Positions 235 to 35,124 of a stretch of 47,742 nucleotides of DNA are shown here, piece by piece (positions within the stretch are counted from its first letter, which is position 1; each line of letters opens with the position of its first letter). Origin of the DNA: an uncultured bacterium (GTDB lineage Bacteria > B130-G9). Both the position numbers and the translations under genes were made by a program. Below the pieces are notes generated by a model. It was not told the DNA's origin, ran no database searches, and saw only the letters and a list, made by a program, of their open reading frames with translations. The DNA lies in contig CBDVDH010000026.1 in the NCBI GenBank assembly GCA_965372715.1, positions 1 to 47,742 on the forward strand, in the 5' to 3' direction.

Positions 235-1259
235 CCCGCCACGCGGCGGCTGATTTCCCTGCTGGGGATGCAGCTTGCGCACATTCGATGGCCCCGGTCG
301 CGGAGCCTCCGGCGCTTGTCATCCCGAAGGCCGCTCTTTGTCCAGACAGATCGCCAGCCGTCGGTGACGAGGTTGCCGTAGGGCTCAACGTTCCCGAACG
401 CGAAGAGGCACGGGAAAACGTCGCCGTCGGCCGTCACGTAGATGTTCTCCGACTGTGGGCAAACCTCCTGACACTTCAGAATCGGACGCCCCGCCGAATC
501 GAGCTCGTAGTTGCAGACCTCGTGCCCGACCGGAAGATCATCGACGTGAATCCTGCGATACGCCTCGTCGTCCCGCTCGGTATCAACCCTCATCGGCTTG
601 ACGTAGGCCGAATCACAGCCTATCCGTTCGACAATCCGTCTGAACGCATCGATCTGCTTCACACTGGTCTTGGTCGCGATCAGCTGGACCTCGACCAACG
701 GGAAATGCCGCTTGCGTTCACGCCTTGCCGAACATATCGCGGCGATGTTTGAGATCGTCCTTTCAAACTTGGCCCCCACCTGTTTCGCCTCGTATTCCTC
801 CCGCTCGGCCGAGATGAGCGTCGTAACGATTCGATGAGGCGCAAGGTCGATCAGCTCGTCGATTATTGCCTGGCCCAGCGTGGCGAGGTTTGAGTTGAGC
901 GTAACAACCAGGCTCCTCTTGCGCGCCTCATCTATCATTTTTAGAATGTCGGGATTGCTGAGTGGCTCGCCGGTCCGAACGAACGTTACGGCGGTGACGC
1001 GGCGGCTCGCGTGTCTCATTACGGATGCGAAATCATCGGCCAGCATGAACTTGCGTTTTCTGTTCGATAGACCGAACACGTCCTCGCACCAGGGGCAGCT
1101 GAGGTTGCACTTGGTGGATGCCTCGACCAGAAGACATCGCGGCCAGCCAGCTATTCGCCGGGCCGCCTCCTTCGCCGCAAGCGCGAGCAGCCACGAGGCC
1201 CTCGACGCTCGCAGAATCTGTACCAAAGTCCTGAACCGCCTGGGAGATACGATCGCCAT
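195..1259 (-). CDS. Radical SAM protein with C-terminal SPASM/twitch domain
   Basis: CNLSCPWC (CxxxCxxC) and GEPL motifs, then C-terminal CPQ...VTADGDVFPC...GNL...CASC. Confidence 0.9.
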   Translation of the reverse strand: MAIVSPRRFRTLVQILRASRASWLLALAAKEAARRIAGWPRCLLVEASTKCNLSCPWCEDVFGLSNRKRKFMLADDFASVMRHASRRVTAVTFVRTGEPLSNPDILKMIDEARKRSLVVTLNSNLATLGQAIIDELIDLAPHRIVTTLISAEREEYEAKQVGAKFERTISNIAAICSARRERKRHFPLVEVQLIATKTSVKQIDAFRRIVERIGCDSAYVKPMRVDTERDDEAYRRIHVDDLPVGHEVCNYELDSAGRPILKCQEVCPQSENIYVTADGDVFPCLFAFGNVEPYGNLVTDGWRSVWTKSGLRDDKRRRLRDRGHRMCASCIPSREISRRVAGAFTRRDLTRHRL

Positions 1260-1299
1260 CCCAGCATATTAGCAGATTCGTTGGAATGACTGTGATCTA

Positions 1300-1323
1300 T
1301 GTGCGCAGGCTTTCCAGCCTGCC
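1300..1323 (+). repeat. REP half-site, GGCTTTCCAGCC family
   Basis: TGTGCGCAGGCTTTCCAGCCTGCC, related to 15896..15920 and 41033..41057. Confidence 0.7.
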
Positions 1324-1502
1324 GCACTAGGGCTGCCGGGTGATGGGCCCGCGGACGCCAGGGCCGAGGACGCGCCTACGCGATATCGAGCTCCGCGACC
1401 GCGCCAGTCGTGCTGTTCTCCAATATCAGCTTGGCGTCAAGCCCCGTTCGTGCATGCGCTGTCTGCAGTGGGGATGCAGACGTATCACACGCTTCGCTGG
1501 GG

Positions 1503-3221
1503 TCACTTGCTTGCCTTCCTGGCGATGAAGTCGCCGATGACGAGGTAGTCGATATGCGTGCTGACGAAGCATTGGATGGCGTCCTCAGGGGTGCAGACTA
1601 TCGGCTCGCCGCGGACATTGAACGATGTGTTCACAACGACGGGCACGCCGGTCAGCTTCTCAAACTCGTCGATCAGCTTGTAGTAGCGAGGGTTCACCTC
1701 CTGGGAGACGGTCTGGACGCGGCCCGTGCCGTCAACGTGGGCGGTCGCGGGGATAACGCTCAGTTTCTCTTTCCGGATGCGATAGACCTTGAGCATGAAT
1801 GGCGCCGGGTCGTCCGACTCGAAGTACTCGCTGAGCCTCTCTTCCTTGATTGACGGGGCGAACGGACGGAAAGGCTCGCGGTGCTTGACCTTCTCGTTGA
1901 GGATGTCCTTCATCTCGGCCTTTCGAGGGTCGGCCAGAATCGATCTATTGCCAAGCGCCCTGGGGCCGAATTCCATCCGGCCCTGGAACCAGCCAACTAT
2001 GTTGCCATCGACTATGAGTTTGGCCGTCTCGCTCTCCACCGCCTGGGACCTGCGGTAGTTCAGGCCCGACTTCGCAAGCGCCGCCTGGACCTGCTCATCC
2101 GTGAACGACGGCCCACCATAAGCGTTATTGAGCGGAACTCTCCGCGGATTCTCAGCGTGGGTGTGATAGAGATACATCGCCGCGCCCAGCGAGGAGCCCG
2201 CGTCGTTGGCCGCAGGCTGGATAAAGATGTTCTCGAAAGGCGTCTTGTCCAGTATCTTCCCGTTGGCCACGCTGTTTAAGACCATCCCGCCTGCGAGGCA
2301 CAGGTTGGGGCACTTTGTCCGCTCGTAGAGGACGTTGAGCATTCTGAAATAGTGCTTCTCAAGGGACTGCTGGAGGCTCGCCGCAACGTCCTCATAGACC
2401 TGCTCCATCTTGCTCTCACGCTTCCGGACCGGAGCAGTCTCGCGGATGAACCTGTCGGAGACCGTTTTCAAGAGGCCGTAGCGCTGATAGCCAAGATAGC
2501 TGAAATCGAACTTGTATTGCCCGTTGCTCGTTGGCAGCACGATCCTATCGAATAGGTCTTCATACCTCGGCTCGCCGAACGAGGCGAGCGCCATCACCTT
2601 GCCCTCCCCGTTGCATATCCTGAAGCCAAGATACTCCGTTACAGCACCATAAAGCTGGCCGAGCGACACGGGGAACTTGACCGTCTCGAGCCGGTGAATC
2701 TTGCCGCCCCGGCCGTGAGCCATCAGCGTGCTGTTATCCTCAGCATAACCATCCGCCACAAATATCGCCGCCTCGTCAAACGGCGAGACGAGGTAGCAGC
2801 TAGCGGCGTGCGCCGTGTGATGATCGACAAAATGAAACCGGGGGACCGGCGTCGTCGCGCTGCCGTCAAACAGGGAAAACAGAGCCTTCTTGGCAAAGAG
2901 CATCGAGGTGATCCGCTTCATGAACGGATTGATCGCAGCTTTACTCTTGAACAGAGACAGTGAATATGGCAGAAACCGGAAAAACGGAACCCATTTATAC
3001 AGAATCTCCTTGTGTGGGTTCCAGAAGAAGCCCACTTGGGCAACGTCGGCAAGCTTGATCCCAGCGAAATCCAGACAGAATCGGACAGCGTTCTCCGGGA
3101 ACTCGAACGTGTGCTTCTTGCGGGTGAAGCGCTCTTCCTCGGCAAATGCCAGCACCTCGCCGTCCTTGACGATACAAGCCGCAGAATCGTGCAAGTAAGC
3201 GTTAAAGCCTAAGACATACAT
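1503..3221 (-). CDS. O-carbamoyltransferase, NodU/CmcH/TobZ family
   Basis: HDSAAC, EEERFTRKKH, HHTAHAAS, EGKVMALA, GRMEFGPRALGNRSIL, RPFAP and NTSFN motifs. Confidence 0.95.
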   Translation of the reverse strand: MYVLGFNAYLHDSAACIVKDGEVLAFAEEERFTRKKHTFEFPENAVRFCLDFAGIKLADVAQVGFFWNPHKEILYKWVPFFRFLPYSLSLFKSKAAINPFMKRITSMLFAKKALFSLFDGSATTPVPRFHFVDHHTAHAASCYLVSPFDEAAIFVADGYAEDNSTLMAHGRGGKIHRLETVKFPVSLGQLYGAVTEYLGFRICNGEGKVMALASFGEPRYEDLFDRIVLPTSNGQYKFDFSYLGYQRYGLLKTVSDRFIRETAPVRKRESKMEQVYEDVAASLQQSLEKHYFRMLNVLYERTKCPNLCLAGGMVLNSVANGKILDKTPFENIFIQPAANDAGSSLGAAMYLYHTHAENPRRVPLNNAYGGPSFTDEQVQAALAKSGLNYRRSQAVESETAKLIVDGNIVGWFQGRMEFGPRALGNRSILADPRKAEMKDILNEKVKHREPFRPFAPSIKEERLSEYFESDDPAPFMLKVYRIRKEKLSVIPATAHVDGTGRVQTVSQEVNPRYYKLIDEFEKLTGVPVVVNTSFNVRGEPIVCTPEDAIQCFVSTHIDYLVIGDFIARKASK

Positions 3222-9558: not shown

Positions 9559-9609
9559 TTGGCAGTTGGCAGTTGACGGTTAGCAGTTGATGGTTAGGAG
9601 GTGAATAGG

Positions 9610-10527
9610 ATGCTCAAGATGTCGGTCAGGAATGTGGCTCTGCTTTTAGTTTTCCTCGCGTTTGCCATGGCGTGCACAGCTCCTGACAAGCGGGTTACGG
9701 AACTCATAGAGAAAGGGAAGGCGAGGTTCAGCGCGAAGTCCTGCGACATAGAAGATGTCGCAATCCTGATGGAGTCGCACTTTGTGGCCCTCGCGGACGG
9801 GGCACAGGATATGGTCGTCGTGACGCGGACCATGGCAAGAGATGACAAGGTCCGAGTGGACACAAGGCCGATGCTTCCTGAAACTGCGAGAGAGCTCGAT
9901 GACGAGGACTTATTTCGATACATATCTCAGGCTGCAAGCAACATCTTTGACGGAAAGGACCTCTGGTCCCTGGAGGTCACGGGATATAATAGGAGGTCCC
10001 GCGCAACGGGCGCAGATAAGCGAATGAAGGGGGCACGAGCACCGCGCGAGAAGAGCTCCGCCCGGGACCAGCTTGAGTTCTCCTTTGGTCTCGAGCAATC
10101 AAGTCCGTTAAGCCAAGACGCCAGATGCGTCACAGGGATTTGGCCGGAGTGGCTGGAACCTGAGAGCAAGTTCCTGGGCGTCGAAGAAGTACTGGGCAGG
10201 CCATGCTACGCACTAGAAATGCCTCTTTTCAGTAGAACGCCTTGTGAGAAGGTCTGGATCGATGTCGAGACGCTGCATCTTGCGAAGGCCACGATTACCA
10301 CCGCCATGGGGCCTTGCAACACAACTTATGAGGACTGGCGCGAGGTGGCCCCGGGGATGTGGCTGCCCTTCAGTCACGTTACAACGGCCACGCTTCATGG
10401 GACGGAACGGGTCTTCCCACAAAGAATCAGATCAATCGAGGTTAATACTGGCCTTTCGGACGATCTCTTCGACCCGCGGAAGATCAACGTTCTCGAATCA
10501 CCCGAAAGAGTGGAGACCGCCAAGTAG
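9610..10527 (+). CDS. LolA-like / outer-membrane lipoprotein-sorting family protein, probable lipoprotein
   Basis: AGGAGGT RBS, lipobox-like FAMAC, and GVEEVLGR, KVWID and VNTGLSDDLFDP motifs shared with the next gene. Confidence 0.65.
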   Translation: MLKMSVRNVALLLVFLAFAMACTAPDKRVTELIEKGKARFSAKSCDIEDVAILMESHFVALADGAQDMVVVTRTMARDDKVRVDTRPMLPETARELDDEDLFRYISQAASNIFDGKDLWSLEVTGYNRRSRATGADKRMKGARAPREKSSARDQLEFSFGLEQSSPLSQDARCVTGIWPEWLEPESKFLGVEEVLGRPCYALEMPLFSRTPCEKVWIDVETLHLAKATITTAMGPCNTTYEDWREVAPGMWLPFSHVTTATLHGTERVFPQRIRSIEVNTGLSDDLFDPRKINVLESPERVETAK

Positions 10528-16592: not shown

Positions 16593-19262
16593 TCAGTCGT
16601 TCTTCAGTTTCTTTTGCAGCTCCGCCAGCGCAGAGAGCGCCGAAAGCGGCGTCATGGCATTGACGTCGAGCGCCTCAAGCTCGTTCAGGACAGGGCTCGG
16701 TGGCGGCGGCGCGGCGAATATCGTTAGCTGGGCAGTCTCCTGCCGTTTCTTTCGCCGCGAGGTCCTGGCCAAAGTCGGCGTGCCATCGCTAGCGTACTCG
16801 TCCCGCTCGAGATTGGCCAGTATCTCCTTCGCCCGGTCGAGCACTCGCTTCGGCAGGCCGGCGAGTCGCGCCACCTGGATGCCATAGCTGCGGTCGGCGT
16901 TGCCGGGGATGACCTTGCGCAAAAAGACGATCCTATCGCCCCACTCACGGACCGAGACGTTGTAGTTTTTGACGCGGTCGAACATCATCGCCAGCTCCGC
17001 CAGCTCGTGGAAGTGCGTGGCGAAAAGCGTCCGGGCCGCGACCTTCTTGGTGTTGTGCAAATACTCAGCGACCGCCCATGCGATAGAAAGCCCGTCGTAG
17101 GTGCTTGTGCCCCGCCCGATCTCATCCAGAACGATGAGGCTCTTCGGGGTCGCGTTGTTGAGGATGTTGGCCGTCTCGTTCATCTCGACCATGAACGTGC
17201 TCTGACCGCGAAGCAGAAAATCGGTTGCGCCCACTCGCGTGAAGACCTTATCAGCTGTCCCGATTCGCGCCTCGCTTGCCGGGACGAAGCAGCCCGTTTG
17301 GGCCATGATGACGATGAGCGCGGCCTGGCGGATGTAGGTCGATTTGCCGGCCATGTTCGGCCCAGTGACGATGAGTATCTGGTTGCTCTCGCAGTCGGCC
17401 CGAAGGTCATTGGGCACGAACTCCTGACTGAGATAGACTTTCTCGACCACCGGATGACGTCCATCCTTGATGACTAGAGCCGTGCCGTCATCGACCGTTG
17501 GGCGCACGTAACGGTTGTCCGAAGCGACCTGCGCGAACGATGCGAGAACGTCTATTGTTGCAGCCGTTCTTGCGGCCTTCTGTATGCGAGTCGTCTCCTT
17601 GGTGATGCTCTTTCTAAGCGCGGAGAAGAGCTGGTATTCAAGCTCGGCGATCTTCTCGTCTGCGGATAAGACCTTCTCTTCCCACTCCTTGAGCTCGGCC
17701 GTCGCAAACCGTTCTGCACCAAGCAAGGTCTGCTTCCTTATGTAATCGGCCGGCGCCTTATCCGCTGCGCTCTTTTTGACCTCGATGTAGTAACCAAAGA
17801 CGCGGTTATAGCCGATCTTCAGGTTCTGAATGCCCGTGCGACGCCGCTCCTGCGCCTCAAGCCCCGCAATGAACTTCTTGCCGTCGCGGGCGATCGACCT
17901 CAGCTCGTCAAGCTGCTCGTCCCAGCCGTCGTTGAACATCCCGCCATCGCGCACCGTAAAGGGCGGCTCGGCAACGATCGCCTCGGCCAGAGTGCTCGCA
18001 ACGTCGGACAACGTGTCCGCATTCTTGACCAGCGAAGCCAAGAGTGGGGACCTAACCTTGCTCATGGCCCTGTAAAGCTTCGGAAGCATGGAAAGCGATT
18101 CCCTGAGGGACACCAAATCGCGCGCGTTCGCGGTCCCGAGGTCGATGCGTGAGATCAGGCGCTCGATGTCCCGAACCGATTTCAGAAGCTGCCGGACCTC
18201 GTCCCGCAGAAGGAAGTCGTCCTTGAACTCCGCAACCGCATCTAGCCGCTGATCGATGCGCTTGACGTTTATGAGCGGATGCAGGAGCCAACGCCGCAGG
18301 AGCCTCGCGCCCATCGCCGTCTGGGTCTGGTCGATGAGCCACAAGAGCGAGCCATTGCGCTTCCCATCGATCGCGCTTCTCGTTATCTCCAGGTTTCGCA
18401 GCGTCGCCTCGTCCATCTGCATGAACCCCGAATCGGTGTAGAACCTGACCGCGCTGATGTGCGACAAGTCTCGCTTCTGCGTCTTCTGCAACTGGTGGAG
18501 CAGGGCCCCGCCAGCGATAATCGCAAGAGGCCTACTTGCGCAGCCGAAACCATCGAGCGACTGGACCTCGAAATGCTCGATAAGCTGCCGCAAGCAGTAG
18601 TCTCGCTCGAAGACCCAGTCCTCGATTTTCGTCAACATCGCCTTCGGGCCTGCGCCCAATAGGTCCTTGATCAGCTGCGAGTCGGCGAGGCGCTCCTGGA
18701 CGACCAGTTCCTTCGGCTCCCAGCGAGAGAACTCGTTTCGGAGAGCTACTGCGGAATCGACGCCCCTCAGCTCGGTAATGTGAAAGTCGCCGGTCGAAAG
18801 GTCGATGACGGCGAAGCCGATGTCGTTGTGGTCCACGTGAACCGAACAGATGTACGAGCTCTCCTTGTCCGATAGGAGGCCCGGCTCGACCACCGTGCCC
18901 GGTGTTACGACGCGCACCACGTCTCGCTTGACGAGACCTTTGGCCGTCTTTGGGTCCTCGACCTGCTCACAGATCGCAACCTTGTAGCCCTTTTTGATGA
19001 GCTTCCTCAGATAGGCCTCAAGCGCGTGGTATGGGATGCCACAGAGCGGCACTTCGTCGGGCTTGCCGCGGTTGCGGGACGTGAGCGCGATGTCAAGCAG
19101 CTGCGAGCCCAGGACAGCGTCCTCGCCGAACATCTCGTAGAAATCGCCCATCCTGAAGAGCATTATGCAGTCCGGATACTGCGCGCGAATCTGCTTATAC
19201 TGCGTCATCATCGGCGTCGTTTTCGCCGACTTGGTTTGCTTGGACGATTTCTTCTGTGCCAT
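16593..19262 (-). CDS. mutS: DNA mismatch repair protein MutS
   Basis: TPMMTQY, FRMGDFYE, TGPNMAGKSTY, STFMVEM, LDEIGRGTST and SYGIQVA motifs. Confidence 0.98.
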   Translation of the reverse strand: MAQKKSSKQTKSAKTTPMMTQYKQIRAQYPDCIMLFRMGDFYEMFGEDAVLGSQLLDIALTSRNRGKPDEVPLCGIPYHALEAYLRKLIKKGYKVAICEQVEDPKTAKGLVKRDVVRVVTPGTVVEPGLLSDKESSYICSVHVDHNDIGFAVIDLSTGDFHITELRGVDSAVALRNEFSRWEPKELVVQERLADSQLIKDLLGAGPKAMLTKIEDWVFERDYCLRQLIEHFEVQSLDGFGCASRPLAIIAGGALLHQLQKTQKRDLSHISAVRFYTDSGFMQMDEATLRNLEITRSAIDGKRNGSLLWLIDQTQTAMGARLLRRWLLHPLINVKRIDQRLDAVAEFKDDFLLRDEVRQLLKSVRDIERLISRIDLGTANARDLVSLRESLSMLPKLYRAMSKVRSPLLASLVKNADTLSDVASTLAEAIVAEPPFTVRDGGMFNDGWDEQLDELRSIARDGKKFIAGLEAQERRRTGIQNLKIGYNRVFGYYIEVKKSAADKAPADYIRKQTLLGAERFATAELKEWEEKVLSADEKIAELEYQLFSALRKSITKETTRIQKAARTAATIDVLASFAQVASDNRYVRPTVDDGTALVIKDGRHPVVEKVYLSQEFVPNDLRADCESNQILIVTGPNMAGKSTYIRQAALIVIMAQTGCFVPASEARIGTADKVFTRVGATDFLLRGQSTFMVEMNETANILNNATPKSLIVLDEIGRGTSTYDGLSIAWAVAEYLHNTKKVAARTLFATHFHELAELAMMFDRVKNYNVSVREWGDRIVFLRKVIPGNADRSYGIQVARLAGLPKRVLDRAKEILANLERDEYASDGTPTLARTSRRKKRQETAQLTIFAAPPPPSPVLNELEALDVNAMTPLSALSALAELQKKLKND

Positions 19263-19488
19263 GCTCAAGAGTTTCGAGTTTCAGGCGCCAAGTTTCAAGT
19301 AACAGATTTGCAGAAGGGACTCGGTCGAACGGACGAGTCGCTACGTCATCATTGTCAGAAAGTGTGGTGCTGGGTTGTAAATCCCGGTCGATTAGACCAT
19401 GCTACACTTTGGGGAAAAGGCTTGAAGGACTGAAATCCCGAGGATCGGACAGTCGTGGAAACGTCAATCATAGTTCGGGTATAGCAGA

Positions 19489-20379
19489 ATGAGTCTCATT
19501 AGAGTCCCAAGAATCAATGACGACATCTCCGATTTCTACACATTGTTCCGAATGTGGGAATGCGCTCGGAGTGATCTGTCTCATGTTGAATTTGATTTCT
19601 CCGAGTGTGATTTCCTCCGTCAAAACGCAATAGCGTTTCTAGGGGGGTTGATTCGTTCGATAGAATCTGCAGGAGGAAGAGCGGAACTCAAATGGGAAAC
19701 GCTCCGACCCAAGATCCGTCAATTGCTTGAACGTAATAGGTTCATCCAGCATTTTCCGCCAGCGGGTTACTCGCCGTCGGGGCCCCCGCGGTCCGCCAGT
19801 TCGATTCCGTATAGGGAGGACATTTCTGAAGACCGAGATGGGATCATGAACTATCTGAAACAGGAGTGGCTGGGCGTTCAATGGATTCAGAAGCATATAA
19901 GCGCGCACGGACGCAACGCGATTGTAGGGGCAGCCTGGGAAATCTACGCAAACGCTTTTGAGCATAGTCACTCCGGAATAGGTATCTTCAGCTGTGGGCA
20001 GTACTACCCCAAAATGCACGAATTAAAGCTCACCGTGGTTGATTTCGGTATAGGCATCCCGCAGAATGTAAGATCCTTTGCCAACAATTTTGAAATAGCG
20101 CCAGCAGCCGCCTTGCAGTGGGCATTCAAGAGCGGAACAACGACGAAGCGAGGAGGCCGTGGGGTGGGGTTGGACATCCTGAAGGGATTTGTGGCCATCA
20201 ATGGAGGCAGAATGGAGACCTTCAGTCATGACGCATTCGGCCTCATTGACGACCGCGGCGAACGATACTCCGGCTGCACCTCGCACTTCGAAGGAACTTT
20301 GGTCAATATCACCTTGAAGTGTCATGAAGACTGCTATTATTCTCTGACATCTGAAGAAATTAGTGAGCCCCTGTTCTGA
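19489..20379 (+). CDS. N-terminal STAS-like domain plus HATPase_c (anti-sigma-factor/Ser-kinase type) protein
   Basis: VEFDFSECDFL (STAS-like), N box EIYANAFEHS, G1 DFGIGIP, G2 GRGVGL and GTLVNI. No HisKA domain or transmembrane segment. Confidence 0.8.
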   Translation: MSLIRVPRINDDISDFYTLFRMWECARSDLSHVEFDFSECDFLRQNAIAFLGGLIRSIESAGGRAELKWETLRPKIRQLLERNRFIQHFPPAGYSPSGPPRSASSIPYREDISEDRDGIMNYLKQEWLGVQWIQKHISAHGRNAIVGAAWEIYANAFEHSHSGIGIFSCGQYYPKMHELKLTVVDFGIGIPQNVRSFANNFEIAPAAALQWAFKSGTTTKRGGRGVGLDILKGFVAINGGRMETFSHDAFGLIDDRGERYSGCTSHFEGTLVNITLKCHEDCYYSLTSEEISEPLF

Positions 20380-20397
20380 AAAGGGAGTGAGGTTGCC

Positions 20398-20745
20398 ATG
20401 AAAATCACCATACTTGATACTATAGGCAAGAACTGCATCACGTTTGAAGATGGCGACAGTCTGTATCAGGTCGTTCATCCCGAACTGCTGGCGTCGCGGG
20501 ATGTAGAGCTTGATTTCGGGGGTGTCGAGGTGCTGGCTTCGCCATTTTTCAACGCCGCGATAGGCCGTCTGTTAAAGGACATATCAGCCGAGACGCTTAA
20601 CAGATCCCTGAAGGTCCATTCTCTCTCTCCCGCAGGGATGAAGGTTCTAAAGCGGGTGATTGAGAACTCTAAGGAATACTACTCCGACCCAGATAAACGG
20701 CAGAAATTGAATGAGATCCTAAGCGAGAGCTCAGAGGGGGAGTGA
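20398..20745 (+). CDS. STAS-like domain protein (DUF4325-like)
   Basis: 115 aa with DGDSLY..VELDFGGVEVLASPFFNAAIGRL. GAGG RBS. Confidence 0.8.
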   Translation: MKITILDTIGKNCITFEDGDSLYQVVHPELLASRDVELDFGGVEVLASPFFNAAIGRLLKDISAETLNRSLKVHSLSPAGMKVLKRVIENSKEYYSDPDKRQKLNEILSESSEGE

Positions 20746-21368
20746 TGCCAATCAAAGTCAGGGCAGACGTCATCGATATCCGACAGGATAGACCAAGACC
20801 AGATGATTCTTTTCTCGTGGACACCAATGTCTGGTATTGGTTGACATACACTCGTGCAAGCCACACAAGCGATTCGCCGAGGAACTATCAGCTCAGAGAC
20901 TATCCTGCCTACCTGTTGAGAGCCAAGTCTGTAAGGGCACAGGTTTATTGGTGTGGTCTTTCTCTTGAGGAGTTGGCGCATAGGATTGAGAGAATCGAGC
21001 TGAAGATTTTTAACAAGACATTGAGTCAGGGTGAAATCAAGCTCAAGGAGTTCCGCCACGATAGGCCAGAGGACAGGAAAAGAGTCGTCGAGGAGATTCA
21101 GGCCGCATGGGGTCAAGTGAAGACAATGGCGGAAGGGCTGGCGATCTCAATTGATCAATTGACAACAGATGCTGCCTTCAACATGATTCCGAGTTCTGAG
21201 ATGGATGGCTACGATCTATTCATGGTTCAAGTTCTCTGGAAGCACTCAGTCCGCGGGCTCATAACGGACGACGCGGACCTTGCCACGGTCTCAGGCGTAA
21301 CCATCTTCACATCAAACCGTAAACTGATCACTGAGGCGCGCAAGCAGAAAAAACTGAGGCAGCGGTAG
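20742..21368 (+). CDS. PIN-domain ribonuclease
   Basis: FLVDTNVW, EELAH, DGYD and ITDDAD acidic motifs. Start overlaps the upstream stop (GTGATG). Confidence 0.82.
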   Translation: MMPIKVRADVIDIRQDRPRPDDSFLVDTNVWYWLTYTRASHTSDSPRNYQLRDYPAYLLRAKSVRAQVYWCGLSLEELAHRIERIELKIFNKTLSQGEIKLKEFRHDRPEDRKRVVEEIQAAWGQVKTMAEGLAISIDQLTTDAAFNMIPSSEMDGYDLFMVQVLWKHSVRGLITDDADLATVSGVTIFTSNRKLITEARKQKKLRQR

Positions 21369-21843
21369 TTCATCCCGGTGATTAAGCCCTGGGTCGATGA
21401 CTTCCCTTGTCACTGTTTTATCAGCTGACTCGTGATTCTTGTGGCCTGTTTCAGCTCATCCGCTCGGCGCAAACTCCGCTTTCCGGGCATGGATGACGGG
21501 GATCGCATCTGCATCGGTTTGGCAATCCTTTCTGGAGCCTGGCAAAGCACGACGCCGGGCGCAGACAGCTTGGCAGCAGACAGCTTATTGGTCTCCGACG
21601 CAGCACCTGGTTCTGACGAACTCTCAAGTTGCGCCGGGAACCCGGTGCCAAGACCGTGGGTTAATTATGCGGACACAGTCTAGTTGTTACCAGATGTATT
21701 ATAGGTTGAACCGCTTTCCGGTCGTTGTAGCGGCGATCTGCGCGCGGAACTAGCGAGCTCGGTCAACTTGACACTTTACGAAAAATTGGTAATGGTTAAA
21801 CTGGTGTAGTGTAGAAATAAGAGTAAAGGAGGGGAAATGATGA

Positions 21844-22038
21844 ATGACTTTAGTTAGGGTAAAGGACGACGAATCTTTTGATTCGGCACTCAGGCGCTTC
21901 AAGAAGCAGTGCGAGAAGTCGGGGATATTGTCCGAGTTTAGGAAGCGCGTTTTCTTCGAGAAGCCATGCATCAAACGCAAGCGCAAAGCTTTAGCTGCAC
22001 GGAAGAAACTCATTAAGAGGATCAGGCGATTTGGCTGA
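21844..22038 (+). CDS. rpsU: 30S ribosomal protein S21
   Basis: [32 protein letters not shown]. Confidence 0.97.
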
Positions 22039-22091
22039 TCAGCCAGGTTGGTTCCTGGCCTATTCTGTCTGTATCATAGTTGGCAGAGGTA

Positions 22092-23066
22092 ATGATGACA
22101 TTAGAGCTCGAGGAAATCTATCGCCTGGCAGTTGAGGCCGGTATCGAGGCAGATCAACGTCCCAGGGAAGAGATCGAGCGACAGCTGAAGATTGAGCGCG
22201 ATAAGTTCGAGAAACTCTCGGGCGGTGCGAAGGCGCGCTTTGACACAGACCGTCTCACTAATCCTTTCGCAGATTGCCGGATACTTCACGGCGAGCTCGA
22301 CGCGGAAATATCGAGCGCGTTGGTTGGCATAGACATCGGGCCGGCGGAGGTGATGCTCGCTGATAGGTTGAGGTCAAAGGGCCAGAATCTGGACCTCATC
22401 ATCGCTCATCACCCTTCCGGACGCGCACTTGCGGCCCTAGCCGACGTTATGTCCCTTAGCGCGGACCTCTGGGCCCAGCAGGGCATGCCTATTGGACAAG
22501 CAGAGAATGTCTTCTCGGGGAGGATCAAAGAGGTGCAGGCGTCGGTTATGGCCGCAAATCACAACAGAGCGGTTGATGCGGCCAGATTGCTCGACATTCC
22601 TTTGATGTGTGTTCATACCCCGGCCGACAACTGTGTTGCGCGGTATCTTAAAGAGACCATCAAGAATGCAAAACCCGTTTTGCTCGGGGATGTCCTTGAC
22701 TTGCTGCTTGAGACCGACGAATACGATCGTTATGCGTCTGAGATTACGGGACCCAAGATCGTTGTTGGGTCGAAGGAGAGCAGGGCTGGCGATGTCTTTG
22801 TTGATATGACGGGCGGCACATCTGGCCCAAAAGACCTCTACGCGATGATTGCGAAATCTACCAACATAAGCACTATTTTGTGCATGAGCATCTCTCAGGA
22901 CCACAAGAAAGAGATTGAAAAACATCACCTGAACTGTATAGTTGCTCCTCACATGCCAAGTGATACACTTGGGTTGAATCTGATTCTCGACTCCGTGGAG
23001 TCGCGAGGAGAGCTGTCAGTGGTGGAATGTTCAGGTTTCCGCCGCGTCAGCAGGCCGCGTAAGTAG
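22092..23066 (+). CDS. NIF3/NGG1-interacting-factor-like metal-binding protein
   Basis: NPFAD.RIL, GIDIG, IIAHHP, HTPADN, DMTGGT and HMPSDTLG motifs. Confidence 0.85.
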   Translation: MMTLELEEIYRLAVEAGIEADQRPREEIERQLKIERDKFEKLSGGAKARFDTDRLTNPFADCRILHGELDAEISSALVGIDIGPAEVMLADRLRSKGQNLDLIIAHHPSGRALAALADVMSLSADLWAQQGMPIGQAENVFSGRIKEVQASVMAANHNRAVDAARLLDIPLMCVHTPADNCVARYLKETIKNAKPVLLGDVLDLLLETDEYDRYASEITGPKIVVGSKESRAGDVFVDMTGGTSGPKDLYAMIAKSTNISTILCMSISQDHKKEIEKHHLNCIVAPHMPSDTLGLNLILDSVESRGELSVVECSGFRRVSRPRK

Positions 23067-24042: not shown

Positions 24043-24116
24043 GGGCGGATAGCTCAGCTGGTAAGAGCATCGGCCTTACAAGCCGGGGGTCGCAGGTTCG
24101 AATCCTGTTCCGCCCA
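24043..24116 (+). tRNA. tRNA-Val (TAC)
   Basis: Acceptor GGGCGGA/TCCGCCC, D arm AGCTCAGCTGGTAAGAGC, anticodon loop TTACAA and T loop GTTCGAATC. CCA does not follow the discriminator directly. Confidence 0.95.
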
Positions 24117-25094: not shown

Positions 25095-26549
25095 TCAGCC
25101 CTTTATGACGCCGATTGGCCTGAGTTTAGCGACTTTTCTTGAGATGCCGGTCTCGTGGACGACGCGGACGACCTCGTCGATGTCCTTGTAGGCGGCGGGC
25201 ATCTCTTCCGCGAGGGTCTTTCTTGAGGCGGACCGGACGATGATGCCTTGCTTTTCGAGCTCGCGGTCGATCTGCCGGCCCTTGGCCTTCTTGATCGCCT
25301 GATGCCTGCTGAGGACCCGCCCGGCCCCATGGCACGTGCTGCCGAACGTCTCCTGCATAGCGGAATCAGTTCCGACGAGCACGTAGGACGCAGTTCCCAT
25401 GTCGCCGGGGATGAGGACGGGCTGGCCGACCGGGCGGTAGCGCGTGGGTAGCTCCGCGTTGCCCGGCGGGAACGCGCGGGTAGCGCCTTTGCGGTGAACC
25501 ATGAGGGTGCGCTCCTCACCGTCAATCTCGTGAGTCTCGCGCTTCAGGATGTTGTGGGCGACGTCATAGACGAGCGACAGGCCGTGCTGAGAGGGGCCGC
25601 CGCCGAGCGCCTCTTCGAACGCCTGAATGGCCAAGAAGCCGAGGCACTGGCGGTTGGCCCACGCGTAGTTTGCGGCGCAGCTCATCGCCTCGACGTATTG
25701 CCTACCCTCACGCGAACTCGTCGGGGCGCAGATAAGCTGTCGGTCGGGGATGTCTATCCCGAACTTGGGGAAGGCGTTTGCCAGCATTGCAAGCGCGTCG
25801 GTGCAGACCTGGTGCCCAAATCCCCTTGACCCAGAATGAACCATAACCGTGACCTGGTCCTTGAAGATGCCAAATGCGTTCGCCGTCTTCTCATCGAAGA
25901 CCTCCTCGACGAACTGGACCTCGACGAAGTGGTTGCCCGCCCCGAGCGTCCCGACCTGCTCGAGTCCCCGCTGGATGGCCTTGCTGCTGATGACGTCAGG
26001 ATTCGCGTCATCGAGGCGCCCATCGGCTTCGGTTCGTTCCAGGTCGGACGTTTGGCCATAGCCCTGGTCCACGGCCCACCCAGACCCGTTCCGAAGGAGG
26101 TCGGCGAGCTTCGAGGGGGAGAGCTTGATCTTGCCTCGGCAGCCGACCCCACACGGTATGCGTTGGAACAAGGCGTTCACGATGTCCCGCAGGTGGGGCT
26201 TCACGTCGGAGACTGTGAGGGTGCTGGAGAGGAGCCTAACCCCGCAGTTGATGTCGTAGCCAACCCCACCCGGCGTCACGACGCCGGTGTCTTCAAGGGT
26301 CGCGATGACGCCGCCAATGGGAAGCCCGTAACCGTAGTGGATGTCAGGCATCGCGAAGGACGCGCGGACGATGCCGGGCAGGGATGCGGCGTTTGCGACC
26401 TGCTCGAGTGGGTCAGAGCCCTCGCCGCGGCCCTGAAGTAGGTCCTCGCTGGCAAAGATGACCCCGTCCACTCGCATACAGGGCTTATAGCGCCTGGGCA
26501 GGCGCCACTTGAATGGATTGATCTGTTCGAGGCGGGATAATTCAACCAT
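25095..26549 (-). CDS. rtcB: RNA-splicing/repair ligase RtcB
   Basis: MPDIHYGYG, GYDINCG, GNHFVEVQ, HSGSRG, HRKGAT and HGAGR motifs. Start overlaps the pyrK stop. Confidence 0.96.
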   Translation of the reverse strand: MVELSRLEQINPFKWRLPRRYKPCMRVDGVIFASEDLLQGRGEGSDPLEQVANAASLPGIVRASFAMPDIHYGYGLPIGGVIATLEDTGVVTPGGVGYDINCGVRLLSSTLTVSDVKPHLRDIVNALFQRIPCGVGCRGKIKLSPSKLADLLRNGSGWAVDQGYGQTSDLERTEADGRLDDANPDVISSKAIQRGLEQVGTLGAGNHFVEVQFVEEVFDEKTANAFGIFKDQVTVMVHSGSRGFGHQVCTDALAMLANAFPKFGIDIPDRQLICAPTSSREGRQYVEAMSCAANYAWANRQCLGFLAIQAFEEALGGGPSQHGLSLVYDVAHNILKRETHEIDGEERTLMVHRKGATRAFPPGNAELPTRYRPVGQPVLIPGDMGTASYVLVGTDSAMQETFGSTCHGAGRVLSRHQAIKKAKGRQIDRELEKQGIIVRSASRKTLAEEMPAAYKDIDEVVRVVHETGISRKVAKLRPIGVIKG

Positions 26550-27594
26550 TCTGATACTCCTGGGAGTGTTCCCATACGATGCTGTATCCATTGAAGACAG
26601 GACCGTCGGTGCAGACCTTCTTGTAGGTGAGAGGCCCTTCTGCGGGGCCATTGTCCTCAAGTGAGAGAGCTCTTTCGCGGGTCTGAACCGCGCATCCGAG
26701 GCAGGTCCCGAGCCCACAGGCCATCTGTTCTTCGATGACGACGAGAAATCGCTTCACGCGCTTGTGCCTGGCGATGTCGGAGAGCGCTTCGAGCATTGGT
26801 CGGGGGCCGCACCCCACGAGCGTTGTGTCAGCCGGATAGGTCGGGTTCGCGTCGAATAGCTTCTCCACGAGGTCGCACGCGGTTCCGCAGAAGGCGCCCT
26901 CGTCGCCGGGATACCTCGACGTTACGATAGAGGGGATGAAGTTATCAAAGAGTCGCGAGACGACCAGTCTCAGAGGCTCTGTGGTTTTGGGAAGCGCCCA
27001 GCGATATACAGAAGGGACCTCGGTCAGCGAGAGCCGCACGGGGCTCTGTCCCCTGCTGTTTATGCCGAGCACCGTCAGCGGGGGCCGTTCGTCTCCACTC
27101 AGCGCCTTGGCCAAGAAATTGACGCCGGAGAAGCCCACGCCGCCGGCCACGAGGAGTGTTCTCTTCCAGTCCTCAGTGCTAAACCCGTTGCCGAGCGGTC
27201 CCAGGAATCTTAGCCGGTCACCGGGGCGCACCTGCGAGAGAAGAAGCGTGCCTCGTCCGACCGCCTTAAAAACTAGCGTCAGCAGCCCGGACTTTCCCCC
27301 GGAGGGCTTTTCGTAGTCGAATACGCTCATCGCACGGGGCAACATGGCTCGATCGTAAACTGGCCCCATCATGAATCGCGCGAGATGCGCTCCGGGCAAC
27401 TCTAAAGAGGGTGGGAGAAAGCCTTCGGAGCTAGCCCAACATGAGATAAGAAGGAACTGGCCCGGCGTCGGCTTCGGGAAGTCAGCCGGCATTTTCAGCA
27501 CTAGACGGCAGAAGCTACCGCGCGGCTTGAGTCGATGAACGGTGCACTCATCCGCGAGAATGTCCTGGGTGCTATCTTCAGACAAGTCTGCCAT
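26542..27594 (-). CDS. pyrK: Dihydroorotate dehydrogenase electron-transfer subunit
   Basis: PGQF, VGRGT, GPLGNGF, VAGGVG, CGPRPML and MACGLGTCLGC...VCTDGPVF (2Fe-2S). Confidence 0.9.
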   Translation of the reverse strand: MADLSEDSTQDILADECTVHRLKPRGSFCRLVLKMPADFPKPTPGQFLLISCWASSEGFLPPSLELPGAHLARFMMGPVYDRAMLPRAMSVFDYEKPSGGKSGLLTLVFKAVGRGTLLLSQVRPGDRLRFLGPLGNGFSTEDWKRTLLVAGGVGFSGVNFLAKALSGDERPPLTVLGINSRGQSPVRLSLTEVPSVYRWALPKTTEPLRLVVSRLFDNFIPSIVTSRYPGDEGAFCGTACDLVEKLFDANPTYPADTTLVGCGPRPMLEALSDIARHKRVKRFLVVIEEQMACGLGTCLGCAVQTRERALSLEDNGPAEGPLTYKKVCTDGPVFNGYSIVWEHSQEYQNG

Positions 27595-35050: not shown

Positions 35051-35124
35051 GCCCTCATCGTCTAGTCAGGACAGGACACCGCCCTTTCACGGCGGCGGCA
35101 GGGGTTCAAATCCCCTTGAGGGCA
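35051..35124 (+). tRNA. tRNA-Glu (TTC)
   Basis: Acceptor GCCCTCA/TGAGGGC, anticodon arm CCGCC-CTTTCAC-GGCGG and T loop GTTCAAATC. No encoded CCA. Confidence 0.95.

Follow-up and report, generated by a model that had tools for sequence, protein, structure and literature searches.

A probable vapKSC toxin-antitoxin operon between mutS and rpsU in an uncultured bacterium

What does a serine kinase with a STAS partner control when the gene that follows them encodes a nuclease? The question is raised by three co-oriented genes between mutS and rpsU in an uncultured bacterium (GTDB lineage Bacteria; B130-G9), on a stretch of 47,742 nucleotides that was analysed as a whole and is called the window here (NCBI GenBank assembly GCA_965372715.1, contig CBDVDH010000026.1, positions 1 to 47,742 of the forward strand). 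Partner switches such as SpoIIAB/SpoIIAA and RsbW/RsbV have a sigma factor as their output and are reset by a PP2C phosphatase. For this locus, a preliminary description made from the sequence had proposed a kinase–STAS switch with a PIN RNase as its output, acting as a toxin or defence module. That proposal agrees with the published model of a system named vapKSC, of which the three genes are clear homologues, and we consider it very probable that the cassette is a vapKSC operon, that is, a three-component toxin-antitoxin and anti-phage module. The identity rests on the homology of all three proteins, their intact functional residues, the conserved gene order and a predicted interface between VapS and VapC; genes 1, 2 and 3 are called vapK, vapS and vapC throughout.

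The vapKSC system was described as a toxin-antitoxin and anti-phage system by Chambers, Rani, Min, Villa and Corbett (EMBO J 2026; PMC13373217; preprint 10.64898/2026.02.02.703251; PDB 9Z7O), and a full-text search gave the name only in that paper and its preprint. As described there, the operon has three genes, of which vapK encodes a CapK-like kinase with a STAS and a GHKL domain, vapS a STAS protein whose C-terminal region is short, and vapC a VapC-like PIN protein. VapC of Escherichia sp. E4736 is reported to be toxic and its D28A mutant non-toxic. Escherichia VapS neutralises VapC, an effect that is lost on deletion of residues 94-116 or in the S48E mutant, which no longer binds VapC, and in the crystal VapS and VapC assemble into a 2:2 complex whose interface buries S48. 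Against phage Bas42, the Escherichia operon protected by about 2 logs; all three genes were needed for this, and protection was abolished by VapC D28A, VapS S48A or VapK F54A. Escherichia VapK was insoluble, and its phosphotransfer and activation by single-stranded DNA (ssDNA) were deduced from CapK and from AlphaFold 3 models; the RNA target of VapC is likewise inferred. For CapK, activation by ssDNA was demonstrated in vitro and was lost in W68A (all PMC13373217). The novelty implied by the preliminary description is thus gone, as the system was named and tested in 2026, and a coupling of PIN and DUF4325 domains had been listed in 2017 as group PIN.4 (Matelska et al., NAR; PMC5499597). The passage on that group gives neither a function nor a kinase, and the window VapC may be likened to it by the PIN–DUF4325 coupling.

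The link to the Escherichia system is clear for VapS, which consists of a STAS domain followed by a short C-terminal helix region (about residues 94-115 of 115 amino acids), with no winged helix-turn-helix (wHTH) domain. It matches the "STAS-like" Pfam family DUF4325 (E 7.1e-15) and aligns with the Escherichia VapS chain (PDB 9z7o_A, E 2.9e-19) collinearly from residue 2, with ASPFFN identical around Ser48, which here lies within LASPFFN. A CapS chain was not among the matches at E ≤ 1 of the same PDB sequence search, which returned this VapS chain. Of 26 aligned sequences, 25 have Ser or Thr at position 48; over 160 loci this residue is Ser in 148, Thr in three, Pro in two, Ala in one and unassessable in six. 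The preliminary reading of gene 2 as a free STAS-like protein with a Ser at the analogous place is therefore borne out.

VapC aligns with Escherichia VapC (PDB 9z7o_C) at E 1.1e-41 over residues 7-206. The Asp in its FLVDTNVWYW motif, D26 when counted from the ATG and D27 when counted from an alternative GTG start, falls on Escherichia D28, and D26, N28, W30, E76, D154, D157 and D176 do not vary among 25 aligned sequences. In addition, 21 of the 25 aligned relatives match the Pfam PIN family PF01850 at E ≤ 0.01. The claim that gene 3 encodes a PIN protein with intact acidic motifs thus holds by homology, with five acidic residues invariant.

The preliminary description had also proposed that complex structures be predicted, and for VapC with VapS the prediction supports binding of the two window proteins. 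The interface score (ipSAE) of the modelled complex was 0.83 (median of three runs), compared with 0.29 for the best of three controls; 116 of 157 solved complexes attained the ipSAE mark, as did 2 of 215 mismatched pairs. At least 94% of contacts are common to the runs, and the partner pLDDT (predicted local distance difference test) is at least 88. Ser48 is among the lowest-error contacts of the model, touching VapC residues 33-36, 121 and 124, and VapS residues 100-112 also contact VapC. In both the Ser48 and the C-terminal contacts, the predicted window interface agrees with the Escherichia crystal complex as described (PMC13373217). The preliminary description had found no antitoxin and had suggested a one-way toxin. 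This part does not stand, as the free STAS protein VapS would itself be the antitoxin: its Escherichia counterpart neutralises VapC, and the window pair is predicted to bind.

VapK carries a Pfam HATPase_c domain (E 5.7e-7) and no HisKA domain, and its residues 31-81 give a weak match to STAS_2 (E 0.29). It has no hydrophobic segment (maximum Kyte-Doolittle 19-residue mean 0.82), and a membrane-type stretch was found in none of the three proteins. Its AlphaFold2 model, built from an alignment of 33 sequences, has two domains and a mean pLDDT of 88.2. A Foldseek search with the whole model gave GHKL matches only (Topo VI-B, WalK, CheA-P4, GyrB), which assigns the C-terminal domain to the GHKL fold. 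Residues 1-100 were folded separately (pLDDT 83.2), and all top fold matches of this part are STAS proteins (SpoIIAA 1h4y, RsbV 6m36, MlaB and RsbS; also 1th8 and 1tid), with template modelling (TM) scores up to 0.73. In the GHKL domain, E151, N155, H159 and D185-x-G187-x-G189 are invariant in 33 sequences, and N155 is the counterpart of the N-box Asn160 (N160) of Escherichia VapK. In the N-terminal domain, the place of the STAS phospho-Ser is taken by R44-x-N46-A47, with no Ser; the same R-x-N-A stands at the phospho-acceptor place of the motif DFSxCxFLRxNAVAFLGG, which is nearly invariant in 30 aligned sequences, the window's included. A shorter form, CxFLRxNAxAFLGG, is common to the window protein and the Escherichia VapK printed in Appendix Table S2 of the paper (PMC13373217), and the window protein keeps both motif Phe residues (F42 invariant, F50 at least 90% conserved). 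No helix-turn-helix (HTH) precedes the STAS domain: the first strand of the model begins at residue 2, and none was found in Pfam. The earlier claims for gene 1, a HATPase without HisKA or transmembrane segment and an N-terminal STAS-like segment lacking the phospho-Ser, are upheld, the second of them by fold matches with weak E values.

None of the collections searched had a name for these proteins. PADLOC-DB 2.0.0 (2023), NCBIfam and PHROGs held no named system for any of the three, and vapKSC is not in PADLOC-DB 2.0.0, where a look-up had been proposed at the outset; a weak match of VapK to the GHKL part of DrmA (E 1.5e-4) was the only one there. VapK also gave generic histidine-kinase matches far under the cut-offs and, in PHROGs, a match to phrog_3364, of unknown function (E 8e-31). 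What Pfam and PADLOC 2.0.0 present as a "HATPase", a "DUF4325" protein and an unnamed gene can now be called vapK, vapS and vapC, with a mechanism that was tested in a homologous system. Three loci whose record titles occur in part 1 of 3 of Dataset EV3 of the paper could be compared directly, and all have the same gene order. Identities for K, S and C are 46, 60 and 53% to Planctomycetes bacterium GWA2_39_15 (L018), 51, 58 and 51% to Candidatus Desantisbacteria CG2_30_40_21 (L026), and 42, 42 and 43% to Pseudomonas sp. GM84 (L093).

The layout of the genes is given in Table 1. That three tightly linked, co-oriented genes are present is confirmed by the open reading frame (ORF) list and the sequence: the gap between vapK and vapS is 18 nucleotides, and the vapS stop TGA lies inside a GTGATG that overlaps the vapC start. 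Two starts are available for vapC, a GTG at 20742 (208 amino acids, 4-nucleotide overlap with vapS) and an ATG at 20745 (1-nucleotide overlap). The ATG is the more likely start because it is preceded by a GAGGGGGAG run that, as read from the sequence, is Shine-Dalgarno-like, and because database gene calls (P0001, 207 amino acids) agree with it.

Table 1. Coordinates of the cassette, its flanks and the second triad of the same genome (window positions, except for the second triad, which is numbered within its own locus)
Feature	Position	Strand	Size and basis
mutS, upstream flank	16593-19268	-	
Segment absent from the sister species (G001)	19330-21628		about 2.3 kb; whole cassette with flanking stretches of about 160 bp (upstream) and about 260 bp (downstream)
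Non-coding stretch of the segment before vapK, presumed promoter region of that gene	19330-19488	+	by position only
vapK, putative CapK-like Ser/Thr kinase: STAS (about residues 1-90, no phospho-Ser) and GHKL (about residues 105-285)	19489-20379	+	296 amino acids; Pfam, models, homology
vapS, putative STAS-fold (DUF4325) antitoxin, phospho-acceptor Ser48	20398-20745	+	115 amino acids; PDB match, DUF4325
vapC, putative PIN-domain toxin, presumed Mg2+-dependent RNase	20745-21368	+	207 amino acids from ATG; PDB match, invariant acidic residues
Downstream non-coding tail of the segment	21369-21628		part of the segment missing in the sister species
rpsU, downstream flank	21844-22038	+	
Second triad (L007), K	1489-2358	-	
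Second triad (L007), S	1104-1469	-	
Second triad (L007), PIN	551-1117	-	ORF runs to 1192

Conservation of the triad among relatives had been named in the preliminary description as a check, and it was found in most of the loci examined. A scan of one genome per species gave 308 loci with a VapC relative, and counts were made from the 80 best. In 79 of them the gene directly upstream of vapC is vapS, and the remaining one is at a contig edge; upstream VapK is full-length in 63, partial in six, absent in seven and at a contig edge in four. Among 80 metagenome loci, VapS is directly upstream of VapC in 77; 54 have a full K together with S, one has K without a detected S, three have S without K, and 22 are at a contig edge. 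Over both sets, three of the four exceptions to the S–C linkage lie at contig edges. When loci truncated at a contig edge are left out, 134 remain, and 10 of these have S and C without a kinase. As individual observations, eight loci (L037, L067, L073, L074, L091, L126, L159 and L165) have VapS–VapC with Ser48 kept, and the 1.5 kb upstream of the pair holds no kinase; the upstream region encodes a type I restriction-modification S subunit in L091 and a KaiC-like ATPase in L073. A partial kinase only is found in L028, L043, L053, L054, L059 and L078. The one Ala at VapS position 48 occurs in a locus with a full-length kinase whose record is titled as an archaeon metagenome-assembled genome (L023:1501-1845).

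Two cyanobacterial loci (L058:1715-6639 and L030:1888-5850) have a TPR-rich protein in place of vapK. In L058, where it is full-length, this protein has 1163 amino acids and a C-terminal CHAT (caspase-like) domain; in L030 the ORF encodes 802 amino acids, with TPR among the best 25 families listed. Their VapS has 263 amino acids, with an N-terminal extension of about 150 amino acids and Pro at position 48, and judging from these sequences the two loci may be a protease-gated variant of the VapS–VapC core. A text search found neither CHAT nor TPR as a word in the main text of the VapKSC paper (PMC13373217).

The genome of the window also holds a second K–S–PIN triad on another contig, on the minus strand (L007; G000:C19:9021-12791). 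Its proteins are divergent from those of the window, with identities of 29% (K), 27% (S) and 22% (C). The S protein of this triad gives E 2e-10 against VapS of 9Z7O, and PF01850 is found in the PIN protein at E 1.4e-7. Triads of the L007 type were also found in relatives of the same family, G004 (L004) and G003 (L006, with a split kinase), and in the unrelated G034 (L003) and G025 (L005). Because the same type occurs in family relatives, the L007 type seems to be the resident system and the window cassette the accessory one. Taken together with the loci described above, we suggest tentatively, and with more doubt than confidence, that VapS–VapC is a portable toxin core that takes different sensors, that the two kinase versions of this genome are insulated from each other and read different signals, and that the TPR–CHAT variant is gated by a protease. 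If this is true, the comparison loci, a more interesting lead than the new copy, would mean that the pattern of exchangeable sensors on one shared toxin core includes proteolysis as well as phosphorylation.

How the window cassette would work can be proposed step by step, each step being drawn from homology, conserved residues and the predicted interface. VapC would be made together with VapS through translational coupling, and VapS would keep it inactive, with the STAS domain seated on VapC, Ser48 buried in the interface and the C-terminal helix directed towards the active site. VapK would be a SpoIIAB/RsbW-like GHKL kinase fused to a STAS domain that cannot be phosphorylated, and, when triggered, it would phosphorylate VapS at Ser48. 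According to the published model, what triggers the kinase is single-stranded DNA arising from DNA damage or phage replication (PMC13373217). The phosphate on Ser48 would break the VapS–VapC interface, and the free VapC would cleave RNA and growth would stop.

Comparison with known systems places the cassette closest to VapKSC of Escherichia sp. E4736, with which it shares the K-S-C order, an HTH-less VapK of STAS and GHKL domains, a VapS with Ser48 and a brief C-terminal region, as well as a PIN VapC with an Asp equivalent to D28. Unlike the Escherichia operon, it is found in an uncultivated lineage, between mutS and rpsU, with no defence genes nearby, and one proposed DNA-contact Lys may be Met. 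CapK and CapS (PDB 9Z71-9Z73) are similar in that CapK is a homologous GHKL kinase with an internal STAS domain and phosphorylates a conserved Ser of a STAS protein; CapK, however, carries an HTH at its N-terminus, and CapS, with its C-terminal wHTH, represses a downstream immune operon transcriptionally, as described in the same paper (PMC13373217). These features are lacking here, where the kinase begins with a STAS strand, the S protein of 115 amino acids has no wHTH, the gene downstream is rpsU, and the output would be a bound toxin rather than a promoter. With type II VapBC modules the cassette has in common a PIN toxin and an antitoxin protein that would bind it directly and is encoded just upstream, with overlapping stop and start codons. 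It differs from them in that the antitoxin would be of STAS fold rather than a DNA-binding VapB; there is no VapB-like ORF, and the upstream gene is of the DUF4325/STAS type. In addition, VapS is reported to leave the active-site Mg2+ in place (PMC13373217), and release of VapC is proposed to occur via phosphorylation rather than proteolysis of the antitoxin.

Several points weigh against the identification as a working vapKSC operon. Toxicity, binding, phosphorylation and defence would all be carried over to this copy from a homologue, at 42-60% identity to the three EV3 loci. The window VapC itself matches no Pfam PIN model at E ≤ 1, and for the VapK N-terminus the Foldseek E values of the matches to STAS folds are weak (4e-3 to 5e-2, none ≤ 1e-3). 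The VapS–VapC complex was modelled as a 1:1 pair, each protein with its own alignment and the 2:2 tetramer left out, and its score may partly reflect likeness to the solved 9Z7O complex. As for the proposed DNA sensing, the VapK sequence printed in Appendix Table S2 counts Phe at 49 and 57, which the window protein keeps as F42 and F50, and not at 54, so the mapping of the paper's F54 is uncertain, and Escherichia K180/K181 would correspond to K175/M176 here, so that one proposed DNA-contact Lys may be lost, with the numbering transferred solely by the offset between N160 and N155. A tblastn search with VapC gave no match in phage and plasmid collections. Finally, the preliminary description had looked to defence islands, and the cassette sits outside any of them: among 15 neighbouring ORFs scanned there were generic domain matches and no PADLOC system, and the surroundings are housekeeping genes. 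Such a location is not unusual, because only 36% of the 289 published operons have a defence gene within 10 kb (PMC13373217).

The main live rival concerns the trigger and not the architecture. It keeps the logic of kinase, antitoxin and toxin, with VapK responding to a cue other than ssDNA or DNA damage, either another phage signal or a stress; we consider this unlikely, though it deserves to be taken seriously. In its favour, activation of Escherichia VapK by ssDNA rests on an AlphaFold 3 model and a single F54A phenotype for an insoluble protein (PMC13373217), and to the possible loss of a DNA-contact Lys in the window protein can be added that the consensus of the VapK alignment varies at the four positions following P174. 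A second triad with so divergent a kinase would also make sense if the two kinases read different signals. On the other hand, the N-terminal STAS motif with the proposed stacking Phe is the nearly invariant one described above, and the related CapK does respond to ssDNA in vitro and loses this response in W68A (PMC13373217).

We regard as improbable a second rival, in which a small segment acquired horizontally carries what is chiefly a selfish module for addiction or stabilisation, and any role in host defence or stress would be incidental. The segment is of the kind this would predict, being 2.3 kb of low GC, missing from the sister species, and set between housekeeping genes with no defence genes among the neighbours scanned, and 186 of the 289 published operons (64%) likewise have no PADLOC hit within 10 kb (PMC13373217). 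Yet neither an integrase, a transposase, a tRNA nor junction repeats were found at its ends, VapC had no match in the phage and plasmid collections, and the Escherichia operon protects against Bas42 in a way that depends on all three genes (PMC13373217). A classical RsbW/RsbV-type partner switch for a sigma factor encoded elsewhere, with the PIN gene as an unrelated neighbour, would explain the fold of the GHKL kinase and STAS pair, which resembles SpoIIAB/SpoIIAA and RsbW/RsbV down to a Ser kinase with a STAS substrate and a phospho-acceptor at the start of STAS helix 2, but it is close to excluded because the S–C linkage is kept and because no sigma factor or PP2C phosphatase occurs among the 17 neighbouring ORFs scanned (6754-34165); moreover, the vapS stop and vapC start overlap, binding of VapS to VapC through an interface that includes Ser48 is predicted, a homologous complex was crystallised, and the kinase carries an extra STAS domain of its own, unlike SpoIIAB.

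Between mutS and rpsU, the cassette forms an accessory segment whose presence differs at the level of strain or species. The sister species G001, of the same genus, matches the flanks with a nucleotide identity of 98% on the mutS side and 93% on the rpsU side, and has about 68 unrelated bp in place of the segment; in G002, of the same family, there is only a short spacer between the flanks. The GC content of the segment is 0.509, compared with 0.576 for the remaining window, and is the seventh lowest among 455 sliding windows; for the cassette itself it is 50.3%, for mutS 59.7% and for the whole window 57.2%, in line with the earlier remark that the cassette is more AT-rich than mutS. Because the segment is absent from the sister species and low in GC, it looks like a gain. 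No junction repeats beyond a 6-mer were found at its ends, repeat searches gave no notable repeats, and no integrase, transposase or tRNA was found there. A hint in the other direction comes from two records, P0002 (VapC, 84% identical) and P0126 (MutS, 92% identical), which both list a longest contig of 22,196 bp; if the two share one contig, the cassette would be older and would have been lost in G001. A functional meaning of the adjacency to mutS was considered and rejected, as mutS and rpsU are also neighbours in the sister species, where the cassette is missing. The closest named MutS relatives are only about 55% identical to the window MutS. Biologically, the new copy adds little: it records the system for an uncultivated lineage that branches deeply, where it sits in an accessory segment of recent gain or loss, outside a defence island and beside a second, divergent system of like architecture.

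Of the flanks, mutS is indeed divergent from the cassette, as first described, but rpsU is not, being co-oriented with it (Table 1). The scan of the 17 neighbouring ORFs, which covered these neighbours rather than the remaining genome, also yielded no VapB-type protein, and the earlier statement that neither a sigma factor, nor a PP2C phosphatase, nor a VapB-type antitoxin is adjacent was correct. A consensus scan found no sigma-70-like site in 19330-19488 and no terminator-like site in the downstream tail, and neither within the cassette nor around it was there a convincing promoter or terminator; Rfam gave no match at gathering score in the cassette or in 21369-21628. The housekeeping neighbours are queA, a starch or glycogen synthase gene, mutS, rpsU, a gene for an OmpA-family protein, rtcB, pyrimidine genes and a two-component pair. 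Two ORFs of the window, 22080-23066 (plus strand, 328 amino acids) and 9601-10527 (plus strand, 308 amino acids), match no Pfam family at E ≤ 1e-5. Two tRNA genes were identified by Rfam at 24043-24116 and 35051-35124 (plus strand), neither of which adjoins the cassette. A gene for an RtcB RNA ligase (PF01139, E 5.6e-174) lies at 25098-26717 on the minus strand, about 4 kb downstream of the putative RNase toxin gene.

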